From assembly GCA_043732185.1 (NCBI GenBank), contig JAYTHY010000014.1:1-16076 (forward strand): a DNA stretch of 16,076 bases, read 5' to 3'. The notes beneath the pieces are model-generated. The model was not told the DNA's origin. It worked only from the letters and a program-made list of their open reading frames with translations, and did not search any database. The DNA comes from Fibrobacteria bacterium (GTDB lineage Bacteria; Fibrobacterota; Fibrobacteria; UBA11236). The translations under genes and the position numbers were made by a program. Numbering within the stretch: the first letter of the stretch is position 1; each line of letters begins with the position of its first letter. Shown here piece by piece: positions 2-14,881 of the stretch.

Positions 2-862
2 ACCACCTTTTCACGCAAGCCGCTTTTCGGCTATCGGGCCATCATCTATGCAACTATGGTGGCTGGATTGCTCTCCTTTGTGGTTTGGGCGCATCATCAG
101 TTCATCGCTGGAATCGATCCGCGTATGGCCTCGGTATTCAGCGTCACCACCATTCTGATTTCCATTCCTTTTGCTGTAACCATTTTCTCCTATTTCGCAA
201 CATTATGGCGCGGGGATTTTCGCTTCAAACCGCCGATGTTATTTGCTGTAGGCTTTCTGGCAGAATTTTTGATCGGGGGCGTTACAGGAATTTACCTTGG
301 CTCCAGTGCATTCGATATCTATGCCCACGACACTTATTTTGTAGTGGCTCATTTTCATTACACCTTGATTCCTGTGGTTATTTTCTGCGGCTTTGCAGCC
401 ATCTATTTCTGGTATCCTAAATTCACGGGCCGCATGATGAATGAAACGCTGGGAAAAATCCATTTCTGGGGCACGGCGATTTTCTTCAATGGCATCTTTA
501 TCCCATTGTTCATCAATGGAATGCGTGGCGAGCATCGGAGAATTGCGGATTATTCCGCTTGGCCGGAATTTATGACGTCCAATATGCGGGAAATGCGAAT
601 CATCGCAACCACCAGTCTTATCATCGTCATAGCCTTTCAAGTTCCCTTTATCCTGAATCTGATTCTAAGCCTATTCAAAGGCAAGCCGGCAGGAAATAAC
701 CCTTGGCAATCCAACTCGCTGGAGTGGACGGTTCCTTCGCCTCCTCCGCATGGAAACTTTCCTTCCGTGCCAACGGTATACCGTGGTGCCTACGAATACA
801 ATGTTCCCGGCCGAGACTCGGATTTCTGGCCACAAAGTGAAATAGGTAAGGATCGGTCATGA
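2..862 (+). CDS. ctaD: Cytochrome c oxidase subunit I (A-family heme-copper oxidase), 5'-truncated by window edge
   Basis: Frame is open from base 2 (TTFSRKPLFGYRAIIYATM...). It has the CuB ligand motif VWAHH, the heme ligand motif HDTYFVVAHFHY, the conserved RR pair (GEHRRIADY) and a typical tail NPWQSNSLEW..PSPPPHGNF. Confidence 0.97.
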   Translation, partial: TTFSRKPLFGYRAIIYATMVAGLLSFVVWAHHQFIAGIDPRMASVFSVTTILISIPFAVTIFSYFATLWRGDFRFKPPMLFAVGFLAEFLIGGVTGIYLGSSAFDIYAHDTYFVVAHFHYTLIPVVIFCGFAAIYFWYPKFTGRMMNETLGKIHFWGTAIFFNGIFIPLFINGMRGEHRRIADYSAWPEFMTSNMREMRIIATTSLIIVIAFQVPFILNLILSLFKGKPAGNNPWQSNSLEWTVPSPPPHGNFPSVPTVYRGAYEYNVPGRDSDFWPQSEIGKDRS

Positions 863-1602
863 AAGAAATGAATATTGGCTTAACCTCCAAAGGCCGAGCC
901 GCCATGTGGTGGATGGTCGCCTCCGAGGCTGTCATCTTCGGTGGATTCATTGTGTGCTATCTATTGTATCGGGTCAGGCATCCGGAATGGTCCGCGATTG
1001 CGGAACACACCTCCACACCACTCGGCATTCTGAATACGCTGATTCTGCTTACGAGCGGACTTTTCATGGCCCAAGCCGCCAGACAAGCCGCGCAAGGAAA
1101 AGGGGGCGGAGCAGCCTTGAATATTGTTCTGACCATTGTGCTCGCGCTGGGATTCCTGACCGTTAAGGGTTATGAATACTCCCTGAAAATTGCGCATGGA
1201 AATATTCCCGGTTCGCATTTATTCTGGGACTTCTATTTCGGGATGACGGGGCTACACGGCTTGCATATACTAGCAGGTATTATCGCAATGATCATAATCG
1301 CCATTGCGGCTAAACGCGGAGATCATTTAGGTCGCGTGGAAATGGTAGGCCTGTATTGGTACCTGGTCGATGTTGTTTGGGTTTTCATCTTTTCACTATT
1401 GTATCTCGACCATTTTTCACGAGTGATCGTTTGGCCCGCGGCTGCGGCCATTGCCGGGTTGGGAATTTTCCAATTCATGGGACTGAAACGGGAGTCCATC
1501 GTGTTCCAAGGGGCTGTGGTATTCGCAGTCATATGTCTTGGGTTTTTCTTTTTCGGGGTGTACCCGGACATTATCCCCATCACCTCGGTTATCGCCAAAT
1601 GA
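859..1602 (+). CDS. ctaE: Cytochrome c oxidase subunit III with C-terminal subunit IV-like extension
   Basis: ATGA overlap with subunit I. Subunit III motifs: WWMVASEAVIFG, NTLILLTSG, KGYEY, MTGLHGLHI, GLYWYLVDVVWVFIF. About 60 extra aa carry FQFMGLKRE and two hydrophobic helices. Confidence 0.9.
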   Translation: MKEMNIGLTSKGRAAMWWMVASEAVIFGGFIVCYLLYRVRHPEWSAIAEHTSTPLGILNTLILLTSGLFMAQAARQAAQGKGGGAALNIVLTIVLALGFLTVKGYEYSLKIAHGNIPGSHLFWDFYFGMTGLHGLHILAGIIAMIIIAIAAKRGDHLGRVEMVGLYWYLVDVVWVFIFSLLYLDHFSRVIVWPAAAAIAGLGIFQFMGLKRESIVFQGAVVFAVICLGFFFFGVYPDIIPITSVIAK

Positions 1603-2168
1603 ACTACACTCTTTCTTTACCGCGTCGTCTCGATCCCTCATCGGCCCTTATGGGAATGTCACTCTGGCTATTTACAGAGCTCATGTTTTTTGCCGCACTG
1701 ATCAGCGCCTTCTTTGTTGCGCGTTCCGCGTCCATCGCCTGGCCTCCGATGGGCCAGCCCCGATTGCCGGTGGTGCTTACAGGAATAAACTCCGTAGTCC
1801 TGTTGGCGAGCGCTTGGGTTATTTGGCCTGCAGCCTTTGGCACTGGGTCCGGTAAGGATACGTTGCGGGATCGTTCGCGGTATTTGACTGCCTTGCTTTT
1901 AGGTGCAGTTTTCATTTTGATTCAAGGATTCGAATGGATCCGACTGATCGGGTTTGGATTGGCGCTCACTTCCGGAACATATGGTGCATTCTTCTATCTC
2001 ATTATTGGTGCGCATGCCATCCATGCTTTGGCTGGGTTGGTTGCATTGGGGTTTTCCTTACCTGCCGTGGGTCAATCGGGTGGGCAGGCGGGGCGACCGG
2101 TTGCCTTGTATTGGCTTTTCGTGGTGGGTCTATGGCCTATTCTGTATGGACTGGTTTACTTGTTGTGA
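1599..2168 (+). CDS. ctaE: Cytochrome c oxidase subunit III (second paralogue)
   Basis: ATG at 1599 overlaps the previous TGA (ATGA). Motifs LWLFTELMFF, NSVVLLAS, QGFEW, FYLIIGAHAIH, YWLFVVGLWPILY. The ORF-track start at 1356 is a spurious extension. Confidence 0.9.
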   Translation: MNYTLSLPRRLDPSSALMGMSLWLFTELMFFAALISAFFVARSASIAWPPMGQPRLPVVLTGINSVVLLASAWVIWPAAFGTGSGKDTLRDRSRYLTALLLGAVFILIQGFEWIRLIGFGLALTSGTYGAFFYLIIGAHAIHALAGLVALGFSLPAVGQSGGQAGRPVALYWLFVVGLWPILYGLVYLL

Positions 2169-2211: not shown

Positions 2212-2460
2212 ATGAAGTCATTTTTCAATATACTGACTGTAACAGTTTTAATCGGTGTTCATGCATCAATGGCTTGCTCTGTTTGTGGTGGACCACTCAC
2301 CCCGCGTACCTTAAACGCCTATATTCTCATGACAATGTTGCTCAGTCTTTTCCCATTTCTATTGCTGGGAACCGGGCTTTGGGTGTACCTAAAAAGTGCA
2401 ACGCCTGTCCATCAAGGCAAGGACGTGGAAGCCGTCACCAAGGGCATGACGGGATTGTGA
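2212..2460 (+). CDS. Small membrane protein: signal-like N-terminus, ACSVC (CxxC) motif, one TM helix; probable oxidase operon accessory protein
   Basis: 82-aa ORF 43 nt after the last subunit III on the same strand. Hydrophobic N-terminus ends in ASMA|CSVC and is followed by a TM segment (YILMTMLLSLFPFLLLGTGLWVYL). Confidence 0.65.
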   Translation: MKSFFNILTVTVLIGVHASMACSVCGGPLTPRTLNAYILMTMLLSLFPFLLLGTGLWVYLKSATPVHQGKDVEAVTKGMTGL

Positions 2461-5995: not shown

Positions 5996-6020
5996 ATTGG
6001 TCGGGATGGCGGGATTCGAA
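5996..6020. repeat. att core direct repeat (displaced copy of tRNA-Pro 3' end)
   Basis: ATTGGTCGGGATGGCGGGATTCGAA is identical to 7742-7766, covering the tRNA T-loop through CCA plus 2 nt. Confidence 0.92.
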
Positions 6021-6085
6021 AACGAGATACCCGCTTTACCCTTAGATGGAACTCTCCGGAAATTGTCGGTGGAAGAAGGAAATGA

Positions 6086-6108
6086 AATCTTGGCAAAAGC
6101 TTGGCAAC
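6086..6108. repeat. Internal end repeat, putative integrase arm-type site (TTGGCAA-N4-TTGGCAA)
   Basis: AATCTTGGCAAAAGCTTGGCAAC matches 7675-7697 at 22/23 positions. Confidence 0.65.
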
Positions 6109-6279
6109 GGTTTTCCGACCCGGTCTTCGTCCGGCATCTTCTCGGGTCCTTGGACTTGAGCCAGGAGGAGCTACAGGAATCCCTTCAGGCCCTTGAGCGT
6201 CTACGGCCGTGCCGGGATGGGCGGGCTCGGGCCTGAACCCCGAAAACCGTAAAAACCCCAATCCCGATCTACTGCGCTA

Positions 6280-6308
6280 TTGACATATAAGTGTCATTGA
6301 CGTATACT
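6280..6308 (+). promoter_or_regulatory. Sigma-70 promoter of the TA operon with palindromic operator
   Basis: TTGACA 6280-6285, 17-nt spacer, TATACT 6303-6308. Inverted repeat TGACA-TATAAG-TGTCA at 6281-6296. Confidence 0.8.
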
Positions 6309-6314
6309 AAGGGA

Positions 6315-6458
6315 GTGACTTCCGAACCGAATATGCCCGAAAACGGATTGACCTTCCTCGCCCTGTATCCCAAAAACGAAAAGGCCGATTTGACGGCTGA
6401 GGACAAAAAGGAACTCCGGAAAGAAGTCCGGAAAATCAAAGAGGAGGCTTACCCATGA
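6315..6458 (+). pseudogene. higB: Internally deleted HigB/RelE-family toxin (47 aa)
   Basis: GTG-started ORF VTSEPNMPENGLTFLALYPKNEKADLTAEDKKELRKEVRKIKEEAYP. YxKNEKADLT..KK.L is the HigB-2-type C-terminus, but the catalytic GKxGGxRV region is missing. ATGA overlap with the antitoxin. Confidence 0.7.
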
Positions 6459-6931
6459 GCACCAAGAAAACCCCGAGCATTGCGGAGCAGGCGCGCGAAG
6501 GTGCCGCCGAGCTGGACGGATGGGTCCGCGGGGATACCCGTTTCCGTGTCACCGTTGCCGGCAAGGATGGGAGTCGAGCGACCTTTCACGCAACCCGCGA
6601 CGAGCTCGCAGCCATCAAAAAGCAGCGCGCGGAGGCTTTGAAGGAAATACGAGGAACGTTGCACATGAGCCAGGCCGGATTTGCGCGTCTTCTCCATGTT
6701 GCTCCAGGGACATTGAAGGGCTGGGAAATTGCCCGCCGCGCAGTCCCGGAACATGTCTACCGCTTGGCAGAATTGGCCCGGGATATCCCCGCCGCTCGTG
6801 CGCATTTAGAGGCGACGGCCGAGAGCGCAATATTGTCCGCGGACAGGCGCCCCAAGGGAGGTGCACCCATTGCCGGTGCCGCCTATTCCTCCTCGAGCCA
6901 GGCTACCAGGAAGCGCGCGGCACACGCTTAG
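6455..6931 (+). CDS. higA: XRE-family HTH protein, HigA-like antitoxin
   Basis: LKEIRGTLHMSQAGFARLLHVAPGTLKGWE is an HTH_3 motif. SD GAGGAGG lies upstream, and the gene follows a toxin remnant (toxin-first order). Confidence 0.8.
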   Translation: MSTKKTPSIAEQAREGAAELDGWVRGDTRFRVTVAGKDGSRATFHATRDELAAIKKQRAEALKEIRGTLHMSQAGFARLLHVAPGTLKGWEIARRAVPEHVYRLAELARDIPAARAHLEATAESAILSADRRPKGGAPIAGAAYSSSSQATRKRAAHA

Positions 6932-6971
6932 GCCGTTTCGCCGAAGCCGCACGAGGCTGGTAGAAACCAAG

Positions 6972-7003
6972 GTCCCCAGGAGAAATCCCGGGGGCTGTTT
7001 TAT
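6972..7003 (+). terminator. Putative intrinsic terminator after higA
   Basis: Stem-loop CCCCAGGA-GAAA-TCCCGGGG (one mismatch) followed by TGTTTTATT. Confidence 0.55.
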
Positions 7004-7143
7004 TGCCCATACTTAAACAGTCCACCCCCCGTGCCGGCACCAATCCGGGATCCTAAGGTATGACACTCTGGTGGTTCACGGTAGTGCTCTCCGATCCGTT
7101 GGTGTCCTGGATCCCATGACTTATCGAGCTCCCTTTCATATAA

Positions 7144-7359
7144 GAGAATCCCCGCACAGTTCAGAAATGGGAGCAAGCCAGATCGTCAATCGATCTGGCA
7201 GCATGGAACCTTTTGCAACTGGCAGTTCGGGTGACCGAAGTGAGGCGGATCATGGCAGATTCTTGCCGATATGGAGAAACTGCAAAATCCGGCACTGCTC
7301 ATCTGCCTGACCGTGCACTCCATGGATTGGCTCCGGGGCGGTGTGAGCCTGAACTATAA
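7144..7359 (+). pseudogene. Remnant of a second XRE-type HTH gene
   Basis: Start-less frame after TAA 7141-7143 reads ENPRTVQKWEQARSSIDLAAWNLLQLA, resembling an XRE recognition helix and the following helix. Confidence 0.45.
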
Positions 7360-7700
7360 GAATGTGAAGAACCGCGATCCGGATAAATGTTGGGTGCCGG
7401 TGCCTCAACCTCTCATTGGATGGATCTGGGAGGATTGCCTGGGTCGGAAGTTGGAAGAACCCTTTACCTCCATTTCCAAGAACAACGCAATCTAGTTCTT
7501 CGCCGTGACCCGAAGCGTCCCCCTTTGCCATTCAGGACGTGATGCGTCATGCCTCTGTGGACACCAGCGGGGTTTATCTGCGAGAACGGCTCAAGCGGAT
7601 CCGCGGGGCGCAGCAACTATTGATCGGTGAGGTTTTCCCGGGAAACGGGAACTCTCTGGAAGAACTCGGAAATCAATCTTGGCAAAAGATTGGCAACAAA
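7271..7700 (+). pseudogene. Tyrosine recombinase (integrase) remnant
   Basis: Two frames: ICLTVHSMDW...KNVKNRDPDKCWVPVPQPL (patch II/III-like), then after a stop and frameshift EASPFAIQDVMRHASVDTSGVYL (box II H...Y). No HxxR motif is visible. Abuts the tRNA att site. Confidence 0.65.
7675..7697. repeat. Internal end repeat, putative integrase arm-type site
   Basis: AATCTTGGCAAAAGATTGGCAAC matches 6086-6108 at 22/23 positions. Confidence 0.65.
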
Positions 7701-7741
7701 AAAGAAGAGCCCCTGCAACTCATTGAATTACAAGGGATCTC
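7698..7741 (-). terminator. Imperfect hairpin plus U-tract downstream of tRNA-Pro, containing an IHF-like site
   Basis: Minus strand reads GAGATCCCTTGTAATTCAATGAGTTGCAGGGGCTCTTCTTTTTT. ATTCAATGAGTTG (7716-7728) has one mismatch to WATCAANNNNTTR. Confidence 0.5.
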
Positions 7742-7743
7742 AT

Positions 7744-7820
7744 TGGTCGGGATGGCGGGATTCGAACCCACGACCCCTACGTCCCGAACGTAGTGCTCTA
7801 CCAGACTGAGCCACATCCCG
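7744..7820 (-). tRNA. tRNA-Pro (anticodon CGG)
   Basis: 77 nt, CGGGATG...CATCCCG-A-CCA acceptor stem, anticodon arm CTACG-TTCGGGA-CGTAG, T-loop GTTCGAATC. Confidence 0.98.
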
Positions 7821-7968: not shown

Positions 7969-9495
7969 TTAATTCTCGTCGTAGTGGTATCCGGCTTCAC
8001 CATGGTCGCTGAAGTCCAGGCCTTGTAGTTCATCGTCGTTAGCGGGGCGAAGTCCTACTAAGGCTTTGACGACATAGGCGAGTACAACTGTGCCTACAAT
8101 GGCAATGGCCATTGTCAATCCAATTGCCTTGACTTGTTCCATCCAGAGGCCGTTTCCTATTAAGCCCTTTAAATTGGTATTCAAATTGGCATTCACATCA
8201 GACGTGGCCAAGAATCCGGTGAGGAGTGCGCCCATAGTGCCGCCCACACCGTGTACGCCGAAAGTGTCCAGGGCGTCATCGTATTTGAACCAATTCTTGA
8301 GCTGGGTGACAGCCAGGAAAGGCACCAAACCGGCCATGACACCGATGATGACTGCGCCGGTCGCGTTCACAAATCCGGTGGCGGGGGTTATGACGACAAG
8401 ACCGGCAACGGCCCCGGAACAAAATCCAAGTACCGTGGGTTTGCCGCGAATGATCCATTCAAGCATGGGCCAGACGAAAGCGGCGACTGCGGTGGCAAGC
8501 GTTGTGGTCATAAAGGCGTTGGAGGCGACGCCATCAGCGGCAACGGCGCTACCGGCATTGAATCCATACCATCCAACCCAAAGCATTCCCGTTCCAATCA
8601 TTGTCATGACCAAGCTGTGTGGAGCGAAATTTTTCTGGCCGAAACCGATGCGCTTTCCGAGAATAAGGCAGAGGACCAGAGCGGACCATCCAGATGTCAT
8701 ATGCACCACAGTTCCGCCGGCAAAGTCGATAGATTTGATTTTGGCTGCGGCATTCCAAACGCCGTTCATGAATCCGTCAATGCCCCATACCATGTGCGCC
8801 ATGGGGAAGTACACGACGAGCATCCACAGGAAAATGAACAACATGATAGCGCTGTATTTCATGCGTTCGGCAATGGCACCCACAATCAGGGCGGGTGTGA
8901 TGATGGCGAACATCAACTGGTACATGGCAAAAACATTATGCGAAACCCAGTAGGAATAGTTGGTATTGGGCGCACTGGTCACGCCCTTCAAAAAGGCGAA
9001 ATGCAGACCGCCTAAGAAAGGGGAGCCAGCATCAAAGGCCAAGCTGTACCCAAAGGCCCACCACATGAGTGTGACGAGGCCGGCGCAACCAAAGCACTGG
9101 GCCACAACCGAAAGGACGTTTTTGGTACGAACCAAACCACCATAGAATAAGGCGAGTCCCGGCAAGGTCATGAATAATACCAAAGCGGCGCATATCATCA
9201 TAAACCCGTTATGGCCAGGGCCAGGAACACCAACGAGTTTGGTGGCGCCGGTATTGTTTATGTACGCTTCTAAATCCGCCAGGCGGACGAGCACAGAAGA
9301 ATCGACAGGCGCAGTGGCTGGGACTGCGGCGGCGGCGGCAGCAGGAGCTGCGACAGCGGCAGTGACAGCTTGGGTCGCTGCAGCTTTAGTGGAGTCGCTA
9401 ACGGTCTCACCAAAGCTACCCATCGCCATAAATAGGCATAGGGCCAATGCCCATAAACCCGTGTATTTCGCTTTTATGCTGCTGCTCTTTATCAT
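7969..9495 (-). CDS. amtB: Ammonium transporter AmtB
   Basis: Motifs LVLFMTLPGLALFYGGLVR, QLMFAIIT, DFAGGTVVH, GWYGFNAGS and DDALDTFGVHG (both pore His present). ATG at 9495 has AGGAG 7 nt upstream. Confidence 0.98.
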   Translation of the reverse strand: MIKSSSIKAKYTGLWALALCLFMAMGSFGETVSDSTKAAATQAVTAAVAAPAAAAAAVPATAPVDSSVLVRLADLEAYINNTGATKLVGVPGPGHNGFMMICAALVLFMTLPGLALFYGGLVRTKNVLSVVAQCFGCAGLVTLMWWAFGYSLAFDAGSPFLGGLHFAFLKGVTSAPNTNYSYWVSHNVFAMYQLMFAIITPALIVGAIAERMKYSAIMLFIFLWMLVVYFPMAHMVWGIDGFMNGVWNAAAKIKSIDFAGGTVVHMTSGWSALVLCLILGKRIGFGQKNFAPHSLVMTMIGTGMLWVGWYGFNAGSAVAADGVASNAFMTTTLATAVAAFVWPMLEWIIRGKPTVLGFCSGAVAGLVVITPATGFVNATGAVIIGVMAGLVPFLAVTQLKNWFKYDDALDTFGVHGVGGTMGALLTGFLATSDVNANLNTNLKGLIGNGLWMEQVKAIGLTMAIAIVGTVVLAYVVKALVGLRPANDDELQGLDFSDHGEAGYHYDEN

Positions 9496-9590
9496 GTATA
9501 GACTCCTAGATTTCGGAATTTCAGGTTGTATCTTTTGAGACACCAAAAGCATTGCTTTCTTAGTCTGTCGGATAGCTCAATCAGACCTAT

Positions 9591-9607
9591 AGCATTGACT
9601 ATGCCAA
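9591..9607 (-). promoter_or_regulatory. Sigma-54 promoter for amtB
   Basis: Minus strand TTGGCAT-AGTCA-ATGCT gives exact GG-N10-GC spacing. Confidence 0.75.
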
Positions 9608-9819
9608 TTTTTAGAATGGTCCGTTTGGACTGGAAAATGGAATGAATGGAGAAGAATTAGGGCGCTTAAAAGTAAACTGTCATCATTTTGCGTAAAAGTG
9701 TAAATAAGTGTCTAAAATAGTCCTTTAGATCCGATAATTGTCATCGGTCCTGGGTGGTAAAGCGTGGGTCTTCCCCCTTTTTTTACGAATTGGTGCGCTT
9801 CCACTCGTCACCAAGTTAA

Positions 9820-9836
9820 CTGGCATGAGGATTGAT
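9820..9836 (+). promoter_or_regulatory. Sigma-54 promoter for the porin-PII operon
   Basis: CTGGCAT-GAGGA-TTGAT: a -24 TGGCA box and a -12 TTGA variant at the correct spacing. Confidence 0.7.
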
Positions 9837-9913
9837 ATACCTAGCTGTGGATGAATACTTCGGCTTCAAAACCGATTCAACATGCAAACCGATTAGATCA
9901 GGAGAACGCTAGG

Positions 9914-11038
9914 ATGAAATCAGGACTTTCAAAAATCAGGATTGGGAACCCTAAAACCAGTTCAAGCCTTGCTGCCGCAGGATTGGCGATAGTAGGCCTC
10001 GCAGCACTAACTGTTTCTGCCGGAACCAGCATTACCGGTTCACTAGAAGCCGGTTATAACTACAACCTATCGATTCCTTCCGACAGCAATAAAAATGTCC
10101 TGCACTCGTATGATGGGATGTCAAAAACATTCACTTTAAATAATGCGCACTTGGTGTTTTCCGGGTCTGATTCTGCAACGGGGCTGGGATATACTGTAGA
10201 AACGGATATTGGTAGCGATGCTAAATTTAATAGAAGCCTGGATGCTTCATTGGGTGCCGCCGATATATTTGATTTGCAAGAAGGCTATATCACGTGGGCC
10301 TTTGGACCCGGAAGGACCTGGACCTTGAAGGCCGGTAAGTATGTCACTTATCAAGGCATTGAGGTGGTGGAAGGTGGCTCTAATCCAACTGTGACCCGCG
10401 GATTATTATTTGGTTTGGCGGAACCGGTTAGCCATACGGGTTTGGATATTTCCAATACAATGGGCATTTTTGACGTGCACGCAGCAGTGGTTAATGGATG
10501 TGATCTTTTCATCGACAACAACACAATGCCATCGCTGGTAGGCAAGGTCGGCATTAATTTGGGCAACCCTTTGGCCTTAACGATTTCGACCATGTGGGGA
10601 CCTGAAAAGGCTGGAAACATTGACGACAAGCGGTTTACCCTGGATGCCACGGGCGTTACCAAGGTTATTCCCATGGTAGACCTCTGGTTCCAAGGCTTGT
10701 ATGGTATGGAAGATAAAGCTTCCTTAGTGACTACTGGGGAGGACAATTCTTGGATGGGATTTGGATTACAGCCATTGGTTCACCTTAACAACTGGTTTGG
10801 CTTAGGATTGCGCTATGAATTCTTCAGCGATGTTGCTGGTTCGCGTACATCGATCCCCGTCAAGGACCTCACTTTGCAGAATATTTCCTTAGCCCCCACC
10901 ATCTGGTTGACCAACACTACGATGGTCCGAGGTGAATTCCGGATGGATTTTGCCTCCAAGGATATTTATTTAGACGGCGACGCCAAGGCTGCGGGCAGCC
11001 AGATGGAAATTGCGGCTGATTTCGTAACCGGGTTTTGA
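9914..11038 (+). CDS. Outer-membrane beta-barrel porin (putative BBP2/OmpL-like family)
   Basis: AGGAGA SD 8 nt before ATG 9914, signal peptide, and motifs GYNYN, FTLNNAHL, LQEGYI, AGKYVTYQGIEV, HTG, LRYEFFSD, RGEFRMD. Terminal Phe. Confidence 0.88.
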   Translation: MKSGLSKIRIGNPKTSSSLAAAGLAIVGLAALTVSAGTSITGSLEAGYNYNLSIPSDSNKNVLHSYDGMSKTFTLNNAHLVFSGSDSATGLGYTVETDIGSDAKFNRSLDASLGAADIFDLQEGYITWAFGPGRTWTLKAGKYVTYQGIEVVEGGSNPTVTRGLLFGLAEPVSHTGLDISNTMGIFDVHAAVVNGCDLFIDNNTMPSLVGKVGINLGNPLALTISTMWGPEKAGNIDDKRFTLDATGVTKVIPMVDLWFQGLYGMEDKASLVTTGEDNSWMGFGLQPLVHLNNWFGLGLRYEFFSDVAGSRTSIPVKDLTLQNISLAPTIWLTNTTMVRGEFRMDFASKDIYLDGDAKAAGSQMEIAADFVTGF

Positions 11039-11043
11039 TCGGT

Positions 11044-11062
11044 CCGGTGGGAATTCCACCGG
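11044..11062 (+). other. Intercistronic hairpin between porin and P-II genes
   Basis: CCGGTGG-GAATT-CCACCGG is a perfect 7-bp stem with no U-tract. Confidence 0.45.
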
Positions 11063-11084
11063 CAAGAAATACTATTATAGTTGA

Positions 11085-11456
<372 letters not shown>

Positions 11457-13780: not shown

Positions 13781-14842
13781 TTAAAGACTTAGGTTCTGCA
13801 TTCCTTCCTTCAATCGGGCAGCTACTTCCTGGCGCAGCGATTCCGGTTTAAGCGGAATCAGATCCGGAACCAGCGAAAGAATCCAATTCACAAAATCCGG
13901 TTTGATCACGATTTTCACTTCAAAGCACACATCTTTGCCTTGCCGGACTATTTTTCCGGGAGGATGAAAATGGCTTTCCGACAGAAACTTTTCCAGCCAT
14001 CCGGCTCTTAAAACCAGTACAACGGTTACGGGGTTTTCATTTAACTGCCGTGCCCATTGGCCAAAACAGTATTTATAGAACTCGGCCGGATCAAATGCTT
14101 CCCGCTTAAAACCCTGTTGTGTTGCGATGCACCGCTTAATGCGTTTGACCGATAAACTTTTGAAAATGCCCGGGTTCTCGGCTTGCTGGCCAATTAGGTA
14201 GAGTGTTCCCACTCTGAGGCTGAGCGTGTAGGGGAAAAAAATGTGTTCTCCCGTTCCCGATGAATAGCCAGAATAGGCAATGCGAACGGCGCTGCGCATG
14301 GCAATGGCTGTTTCCAGGATCTTAAGAATTCCTTGCGCTGGGTCGGCTTCTGCAAAGGGTCCGTGATCAATAAAATAGGCATCAGTAGCGGGCGGCAGTG
14401 TTTCACTTTTATTCGGACTGCCGACAGGGGCATCTTTAGCTTCCAAATAGTGGATGAGCTGGGAAATGATGCCGGAGTATTTGGGATTGCCGCCGGCATT
14501 TAGTTCGCCACGGATTTTTTTTAAGGCGGGTAGGTAATGCTCCGGGGTTCCGGGCCCACGCTGAATATGATACAGGGATTTTCGTCCCCCGATGCGCTTG
14601 GAAACCAAATCGAATTTGAGCCGTTTAAGGTCCGAGAGGTATCGCTTCACCGTGCGTTCATCCACTCCAAGTAAGGAGGAGAGATGTTGGATGCCCAAAC
14701 CTTCGGAATGGGTTTGCAGCAGGCTCACCATTTTGTGCATCTTGGCGGTTTTAGTATTGAGAGGAGGCAGTCGATGATCGGGAACCGACAGCCCGCCGGT
14801 TTGGCGAATCTGTTTCTCAATATGCGAAAGCACTTTAGTCAT
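13781..14842 (-). CDS. WYL-domain transcriptional regulator (wHTH-WYL-WCX)
   Basis: HTH LSSLLGVDERTVKRYLSDLK, WYL region ILETAI..RSAVRIAY...PYTL....TLYLIG....KSLSVKRI, and WCX region WILSL...PESLRQEV. ATG at 14842 with GGTGGAG SD. Confidence 0.9.
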   Translation of the reverse strand: MTKVLSHIEKQIRQTGGLSVPDHRLPPLNTKTAKMHKMVSLLQTHSEGLGIQHLSSLLGVDERTVKRYLSDLKRLKFDLVSKRIGGRKSLYHIQRGPGTPEHYLPALKKIRGELNAGGNPKYSGIISQLIHYLEAKDAPVGSPNKSETLPPATDAYFIDHGPFAEADPAQGILKILETAIAMRSAVRIAYSGYSSGTGEHIFFPYTLSLRVGTLYLIGQQAENPGIFKSLSVKRIKRCIATQQGFKREAFDPAEFYKYCFGQWARQLNENPVTVVLVLRAGWLEKFLSESHFHPPGKIVRQGKDVCFEVKIVIKPDFVNWILSLVPDLIPLKPESLRQEVAARLKEGMQNLSL

Positions 14843-14881
14843 GTCGCACTCCACCGGGTATTATAGGTGTACCAACCGGGG

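Follow-up and report, generated by a model that had tools for sequence, protein, structure and literature searches.

A clade of A-family heme-copper oxidases that lacks the K-channel residues and carries new invariant polar residues

Contig C14 of a Fibrobacteria bacterium assembly begins with the 16,076 nucleotides analysed here (the window), which open within a gene for subunit I of an A-family heme-copper oxidase whose K proton channel, judging from the alignment, appears to be shut from entrance to top. Our data support the view that this protein belongs to a real, divergent and monophyletic clade with a rewired proton pathway, as the preliminary description had suggested from the window. 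The clade enzyme acts like an A-type O2 reductase, and overall very probably is one, yet it lacks the K-channel expected of a canonical A1 enzyme. A fixed set of new polar residues in subunits I and II probably forms a replacement proton route.

Gene, operon and channel residues

Frame 2 at the window start encodes the last 286 residues of subunit I, and residues 1–314 are encoded at one end of contig C22 of the same assembly, the genome being reported as 100% complete. The C22 end overlaps the window start by 99 identical terminal bases, as is the case for many contig pairs of this assembly, and the joined contigs translate exactly to a 568-aa database protein (P0001). A whole, unbroken copy of the gene is found in a named Fibrobacteria record (L018), and a second assembly (G008) has the same protein, with 100% identity over the fragment. 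Residue numbers are those of the full P0001, with bovine equivalents obtained through an alignment with canonical alphaproteobacterial COX1; the Rhodobacter sphaeroides equivalents follow an alignment for subunit II and the customary numbering for subunit I. The features are listed in Table 1.

Table 1. Coordinates of the oxidase operon and of the subunit I residues discussed (window positions unless C22 is given)
Feature	Position	Strand	Basis or remark
Sigma-54 box of the host clade operon	C22:1982-1966		
coxB, CuA subunit II fused to a C-terminal cytochrome c	C22:1914-958		above TIGR02866 cut-off
coxA, residues 1-314	C22:944-3	-	
coxA 3' half (residues 283-568), A-family oxidase subunit I lacking the K-channel residues	2..862	+	Pfam COX1; join gives P0001
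CuB ligands His313-His314 and clade-specific Gln315 (bovine Met292)	92..100	+	
Ser336 (bovine Ala313), one turn above the lost Thr	161..163	+	347/347 clade sequences
K-channel segment, apparently closed: Phe339 (Thr316), Thr342 (Lys319), Ser345, Tyr346	170..193	+	alignment
Glu370, helix IX (bovine Leu347)	263..265	+	helix wheel and interface prediction
Heme ligands His399 and His401, then Ile405-Pro406 replacing bovine Ser382-Met383	350..373	+	
His460-Arg461-Arg462, GEHRR for GMPRR	533..541	+	propionate-binding Arg pair kept
First subunit III homologue, with C-terminal extension	859..1602	+	Pfam COX3
Second subunit III homologue	1602..2168	+	Pfam COX3
82-aa membrane protein, A-C-x-x-C-G motif	2212..2460	+	no Pfam family

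The operon order in the host is coxB, coxA, two COX3 genes and the small Cys-motif protein; most relatives have an extra dihaem cytochrome c upstream and COX4 between the two COX3 genes. The extension of the first COX3 homologue is probably the remnant of a fused subunit IV: in relatives this place is taken by a separate COX4_pro gene, and a search of the extension gave no COX4 match. The 82-aa protein is a possible accessory factor, and a similar Cys motif lies downstream in 5 of the 21 clade loci with enough flanking sequence, not all of these five being certain, and also in a small number of Lys-bearing operons. Small A-C-x-x-C membrane proteins with no Pfam family, the motif following a signal-like stretch, also trail several double-COX3 operons (L113, L133, L171), with or without the lysine. 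Subunit IV is fused to a cytochrome c domain in the clade operons of several Gemmatimonadota and one member of the Bradymonadia (L031:8201-8989, L032, L033, L035).

Subunit I scored 584 bits against the profile CtaD_CoxA, for which the cut-off is 670.75. Its alignment-based model (pLDDT 86.6; the single-sequence fold reached only 44) matched aa3 oxidases, with a Z score of 46.5 and an rmsd of 1.8 Å over 503 residues for 3om3_A, and ba3 chains matched the sequence at an E value of about 1e-9, as against 1e-116 for aa3.

Helix VIII aligned without gaps, LISIPFAVTIFSY in the query against LIAVPTGVKFFNW in the Lys-bearing mycobacterial aa3 enzyme, and the register also holds to bovine Thr316 and Lys319 through the canonical alphaproteobacterial COX1. 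This alignment confirmed the earlier observation that both K-channel residues are gone, with Phe339 at 170–172 and Thr342 at 179–181; the count from the second CuB histidine at position 92 had given the right register, although position 92 is the first helix VII histidine. Lysine was found at position 342 in none of the 347 clade sequences, which have mostly Met, Ile or Leu and in 11 cases Thr, and position 339 is Ile, Phe, Val or Leu but never Ser or Thr (0/347). The conserved Asn/Ser and Trp at positions 345 and 346 are lost in the clade, Ser279 is replaced with Ala (Ser retained in 6/347), and the subunit II entry glutamate, equivalent to R. sphaeroides Glu101, is replaced, by Gln62 in the query, the entry-Glu pattern occurring in 4 of 49 clade operons versus 106 of 113 Lys-bearing ones.

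The metal ligands visible in the window had been described as intact, and this can now be extended to all six histidines (His79, 264, 313, 314, 399 and 401), invariant where covered (175 sequences). The active-site tyrosine and the D-channel residues, to which the preliminary description had pointed as lying upstream of the window, are also present. Tyr268 on helix VI was found in 347/347 sequences (the cross-link itself being invisible in sequence), as was Glu266, in an intact GHPEVY that contains the A1 glutamate of XGHPEV; Asp109, Asn98 and Asn116 at the D-channel entry are invariant where covered, Asn187 occurs in 346/347, and the two upper D-channel serines, under Glu177, are swapped for Ala/Phe. 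The CuA ligands are invariant in 48 subunit II sequences. Gln315 (HHQF, 98–100), His460 (GEHRR, 533–535) and Glu370 (263–265) are as previously described: Gln315 occurs in 344/347 clade sequences and in none of 275 others, and His460 in 323/347, followed by Arg461 in 172/172. Pro406 was found in 343 of the 347, with one gap; it falls in the region of bovine Ser382-Met383, a redox-mobile helix X segment linked to the D-channel according to the accessible text of PMC4550891.

The clade has the common fold, the six histidines, GHPEVY with its Glu and Tyr, the D-channel Asp/Asn entry, a CuA subunit II and subunit III in common with the canonical A1 aa3/caa3 enzymes of R. sphaeroides, P. denitrificans, mitochondria and mycobacteria, and thus the sequence features of an A-family O2 reductase other than the K-channel, of which all five polar positions (the Lys362, Thr359, Ser299, Ser365 and subunit II Glu101 equivalents) are lost. 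It differs from them further in having gained Glu177, Ser336, Gln315, Pro406 and subunit II Asp77. A B-family assignment (no D-channel, polar K-channel analogue) does not fit, the D-channel being kept in the clade.

Definition, relatives and spread of the clade

Membership of the clade was decided by identity alone: its 347 distinct sequences, among the 622 examined, are at least 52% identical to P0001, and none of the others exceeds 50%. These other 275 served as the comparison set. In a tree of 65 rows built by a quick method without bootstrap, and with the signature columns removed, the clade formed one branch with an SH-aLRT value of 100. Assembly error and decay, considered as explanations of the missing lysine, were ruled out by the identical protein in G008, by the exact P0001 join and by the absence of Lys from 347/347 sequences; the substitution is not unique to this assembly. 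Named carriers belong to the Fibrobacteria, Myxococcota, Gemmatimonadota, Verrucomicrobiota, Oligoflexia, Bacteroidota, Spirochaetia and SAR324. The two largest clade clusters, with 804 and 842 members, include SAR324-labelled proteins, and one RefSeq isolate, Pelagicoccus sp. SDUM812002, has the clade enzyme.

A larger branch (SH-aLRT 98) joined the clade with the A1 subtype a-III, Lys-bearing Gemmatimonadota A1 enzymes and two other Lys-less groups. Subtype a-III, the COX3-doublet subtype in the accessible parts of Degli Esposti 2019 (PMC6431628) and 2021 (PMC8239418), shares two COX3 genes and 42–45% identity with the clade, but it keeps the K-channel, forms a separate clade (SH-aLRT 100 for each) and has COX4 after both COX3 genes rather than between them.

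Loss of the lysine itself has precedent, and it is the spread of this clade, its role as the sole detectable oxidase and the recurrent compensating residues that bear on the need for a K-channel. Lys-less A-family oxidases are already in print (Degli Esposti 2020/2021), with three A1 subclades in the accessible text of PMC8239418. The 'KC channel' A1 group (Elusimicrobia, Ca. Calescamantes, Methylacidiphilaceae) and the 'Oligoflexia' group (Bacteriovorax) of Degli Esposti 2021 share with our clade the A1 motif, the missing lysine, Ser336 and the larger branch. However, the proteins matching their patterns, P0125 (Elusimicrobia) and L052 (Halobacteriovorax), fell into clades of their own and still have Ser at 339, but none of Glu177, Gln315 and Glu370. 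The best quick tree joined our clade with the Elusimicrobia-type proteins with a support of 7, and the Halobacteriovorax-type group was placed apart from it, with a-III and the Gemmatimonadota A1 enzymes (SH-aLRT 90). Bacterium HR19, seen as a table row with Thr at the Lys and Phe at the Thr position, shares 7 of 10 positions with the query. In the Lys-less oxidases of acidophilic iron oxidisers, Thioclava and Chloroflexi (10.1101/2020.03.01.968255) and of Ferrigenium straubiae (10.64898/2026.01.22.701106), the lysine and the subunit II entry Glu are lost and the D-channel is kept, with an effect described as unclear in the accessible text; the iron-oxidiser group nevertheless keeps Thr at 339 and branches elsewhere, and the proteins matching its pattern have Glu333 instead of subunit II Asp77. 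Our literature searches yielded no account of the clade, Glu177, Ser336 or subunit II Asp77, and one may be contained in subscription papers and in supplementary Figures S9–S11 of 10.1101/2020.03.01.968255; the accessible part of PMC11841059 made no link to the clade enzyme.

New invariant residues and a candidate proton route

Several changes are more constant than Glu370, either upstream of the window (Glu177 and subunit II Asp77) or within it (Ser336 and Pro406). Glu or Asp at 177, at the top of the D-channel, was found in all 347 clade sequences versus 2/275 outside; it maps to bovine Ala153, and a helix wheel places it on the helix IV face of D-channel positions 180, 184 and 187. Ser or Thr at 336 is also frequent in other Lys-less A-family proteins (28 of the 34 outside the clade with an apolar replacement of Lys, versus 5 of 222 Lys-bearing proteins), and 19 proteins with Gln, His or Glu in place of Lys mostly retain Ala. 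Glu333, facing the subunit II helix of Asp77, was found in 11 of the 34 and in 0/222. Asp77, buried in TM2 of subunit II, was present in 75/75 paired clade loci versus 0/113 Lys-bearing operons, and in one Lys-less operon of the Oligoflexia type an Asp lies at most one residue away from this position. It is located 15 residues past the lost entry Glu and would lie about level with the active site; in the window's enzyme, eleven apolar residues separate it from the cytoplasmic end of TM2, and a Glu341/His70 rung is missing, which speaks against the route proposed below. An independent-pairs test on a tree of 114 scored rows (the degenerate P0238, P0252 and P0266 being left out) with nine Lys-loss changes showed Ser/Thr336 to follow in 5.0 of 6 pairs with none against (median p 0.06, not significant); for Glu333, the median p was 0.25, also not significant. 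The unrelated Lys-less A-family proteins with a Glu three residues before Ser/Thr336 are P0139, P0150, P0167, P0172, P0196, P0207, P0211, P0222, P0223, P0263 and L159.

The predicted interface between subunits I and II names residues 333–334, 336–337 and 340–341 of helix VIII, 365, 368–369 and 372–373 of helix IX, and 34, 70, 73–74 and 77 of subunit II, with a score of 0.85 (best control 0.00), at least 94% contact agreement between runs and a partner pLDDT of at least 86. The score mark was reached by 116 of 157 solved pairs and 2 of 215 mismatched pairs, and since subunits I and II are a textbook pair, passing it shows likeness only; the top interface pairs listed do not include 77 with 336.

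In the mechanism we propose, cytochrome c would feed an O2 reductase of A-family descent, with a CuA subunit II fused to cytochrome c and a heme/heme-CuB/His-Tyr site. The one or two protons that normally reach the active-site tyrosine through the K-channel in the reductive half-cycle would instead take a short path between subunits I and II, from Asp77 on TM2 of subunit II to Ser336 on helix VIII and then to the hydroxyl of heme a3 and Tyr268. In solved structures, this heme a3 hydroxyl bonds to the tyrosine, and Ala313 lies alongside the side chain that bears it. The D-channel would carry the remaining protons; Glu177, an additional carboxylate directly beneath Glu266, and the change of the underlying serines to Ala/Phe would retune it, and Glu370 would be a secondary change beside the Pro406 kink. 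From the alignment to solved enzymes, the helix wheels and the list of interface residues, we give roughly even chances to the proposal that Asp77, Ser336 and Tyr268 replace the K-channel; Asp77 and Ser336 could, however, be structural or electrostatic.

In a rival reading that we consider somewhat unlikely, Glu177 would be a second donor below Glu266, the D-channel would supply all the chemical protons, Asp77 and Ser336 would only stabilise the closed K-channel or tune the charge near heme a3, and pumping might be reduced or uncoupled. Glu/Asp177 is indeed as invariant as the ligands and on the D-channel face of helix IV, at what we take to be the site of the uncoupled S197D mutant, which our literature searches did not find. 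The D-channel-linked segment of helix X (accessible text of PMC4550891) is remodelled as well, by Pro406, and in the available part of PMC6934443 the added D-channel carboxylates N139D and N207D uncouple pumping with turnover kept. A barrier between the D-channel end and the tyrosine has nevertheless been argued for, in the accessible text of PMC8079940. Furthermore, other Lys-less lineages without Glu177 share Ser336 and an interface acid, so that what recurs along with Lys loss is the change at the interface. We therefore prefer the route from the interface acid through Ser336 to Tyr268, on the basis of this convergence, and both readings may hold in part. The broader idea that K-channel loss in the A family has been mended repeatedly in one way, by a Ser in place of Ala313 together with a buried carboxylate where helix VIII meets subunit II TM2, is in our judgement unlikely.

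The suggestion in the preliminary description that the helix IX glutamate occupies the K-channel space was not supported. Glu370 is common in the clade (265/347, versus 1/275 outside) but dispensable: it is absent from the other 82 sequences and from basal members, a tree of 75 loci shows nine changes of its state, and the two largest SAR324-labelled clusters have Ala instead. On a helix wheel it is turned 100 degrees away from the Phe371 face and 120 degrees away from the face predicted to contact subunit II, which would make it point away from the K site, and it probably faces helices X and XI. The interface prediction does not name Glu370, which by itself is no evidence. No covariation of Glu370 with subunit II Glu34 was detected across the 75 loci, and Glu34 is also found in 10/113 Lys-bearing operons. 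A related reading, that Glu370, with Glu341 in some members, takes over from Lys362 as the group that is protonated in a K-channel of shifted course, can draw on the presence of Glu341 in 221/347 sequences, so that only 27/347 lack both glutamates, and on its pairing with subunit II His70 in 56/56 Glu341 loci, which represent only two independent pairs. The losses extend, however, to the channel entrance and to the Thr above the Lys, and, in view of the repeated loss and the orientation of Glu370, we consider this reading very unlikely.

If, under the broader idea of one recurrent solution, the buried interface acid is fed from the periplasm, the reductive-phase protons would be non-electrogenic and, with Glu177 retuning the D-channel, the clade would consist of lower-yield oxidases. 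Less energy than the annotation suggests would in that case be conserved by the principal A-family oxidase of a Myxococcota order, of many Longimicrobiales and probably of marine SAR324. Many members carry the database label 'cbb3-type subunit I', which would mislead counts of high- versus low-affinity oxidases in marine surveys.

Genome context, activity and other features of the window

Among the 41 genomes examined around the host, the only tally to include the unpublished G011, four carry the clade gene (G000, G008, G027 and G029). The host also has a Lys-bearing A2 oxidase linked to ACIII, a bd oxidase and a cNOR-type operon, and because of these and the sigma-54 box (Table 1) the clade enzyme would be accessory in this organism. 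The box is one of 12 top-scoring sites, the other 11 being located 30–79 nt before an ORF, and rpoN is present. Similar boxes were found at L019 and L021; clade-wide sigma-54 control was rejected, a strong box lying within 2.6 kb in 3 of 22 clade loci versus 2.3 expected.

In a sample of 51 genomes from one Longimicrobiales family, the clade enzyme replaces, rather than joins, other A-type enzymes: 14 of the 16 carriers have no other A-type match, and 34 of the 35 non-carriers have one. Fifteen of these carriers were shown to be Lys-less, and, as kin, they are not independent. Within a sample of 61 genomes from one Myxococcota order, 57 have a match of 57–62% identity, and the 29 matches checked by sequence all lack the Lys and have both Glu177 and Asp77. 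A further match at E 1e-60 was missing from 40 of the 57; 32 of these 40 were tested, and 14 have cbb3, two of them with a bd-type match as well. Of the 18 without cbb3 or bd, nine showed no second heme-copper enzyme; 12 loci were retrieved from the remaining nine, and their motifs were of NOR type in all but one, which was unclassified.

The clade enzyme was thus the only heme-copper enzyme (PF00115), with bd not found, in 14 genomes (G044, G050, G063, G091, G094 and nine Myxococcota), most of them MAGs, so that the reading is 'not found' rather than 'absent'; the record of G044 consists of one chromosome, and a single contig of G109 holds 4.54 of about 4.6 Mb. The search for an alternative oxidase had no positive control, and heme A synthase was present in 5/5 genomes tested. 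This sole occurrence without bd makes O2 reduction the most likely activity. Among the genomes listed in the accessible Dataset S6 of Murali 2024 (PMC11214002), each of 12 from order SAR324 has one A-family enzyme, possibly that of the clade, and eight have no other heme-copper enzyme.

The R. sphaeroides K362M mutation abolishes oxidase turnover but spares peroxidase activity, according to the accessible text of PMC7601700, and the clade enzyme could accordingly be imagined as its natural counterpart, with no reductive phase with O2 and acting as a cytochrome c-dependent H2O2 reductase. The accessory position of the host operon, beside a Lys-bearing A2 oxidase and a bd oxidase and under a sigma-54 box, would suit such a role. 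Nevertheless, we consider it highly improbable, given the 14 genomes in which no other heme-copper or bd enzyme was found, the place of the enzyme as the core A-family oxidase of the Myxococcota order (57/61) and its replacement of other A-type enzymes in the Longimicrobiales family. It has long been asked why two channels are needed in A-family enzymes, and a large natural clade without the K-channel, the only O2 reductase found in several genomes, must have found a solution.

NO or N2O chemistry, the other half of the earlier proposal of a rewired pathway or a different activity, was not supported, and it appears exceedingly improbable that the clade is an NO or N2O reductase derived from the A family. 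Extra buried carboxylates and a possible periplasmic proton access are loosely NOR-like, and carriers often hold denitrification-type heme-copper enzymes. These are, however, separate enzymes of the cNOR, qNOR or eNOR type, judged by their motifs, as is the cNOR-type operon of the host. The accessible text of Murali 2024 (PMC11214002) describes cNOR, qNOR, eNOR, sNOR, gNOR, nNOR, bNOR and a putative N2O reductase as sharing the heme-copper scaffold, with a CuA partner in the B-derived ones, but as having no active-site tyrosine and originating from the B or C family, whereas our clade keeps both the D-channel and an invariant tyrosine.

One clade operon (L245, G081:C1:242515-253541) is located about 9 kb from a Lys-bearing A1 operon, and in G111 another (L295, with L274, G111:C48) is about 5 kb from an eNOR-type gene. 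Two Verrucomicrobiota genomes encode CcoN-like proteins of about 495 aa with one and three His only (L190:1372-2856 and L193:1375-2856), which are ligand-less cbb3 subunit I paralogues.

The remainder of the window contains a 25-nt exact copy of a tRNA-Pro(CGG) 3' end, at 5996–6020 and 7742–7766, which brackets about 1.7 kb (5996–7820) with a 158-aa ORF without a Pfam family and is probably a small integrated element or its remnant. At 7969–11456, a minus-strand ammonium transporter gene is divergent from genes for a BBP2 beta-barrel porin and a PII-like protein (PII by sequence alone), forming a compact nitrogen-uptake cluster. A 357-aa minus-strand protein encoded at 13781–14854, with no Pfam match at E 1e-5, resembles an HTH-WYL regulator by eye.
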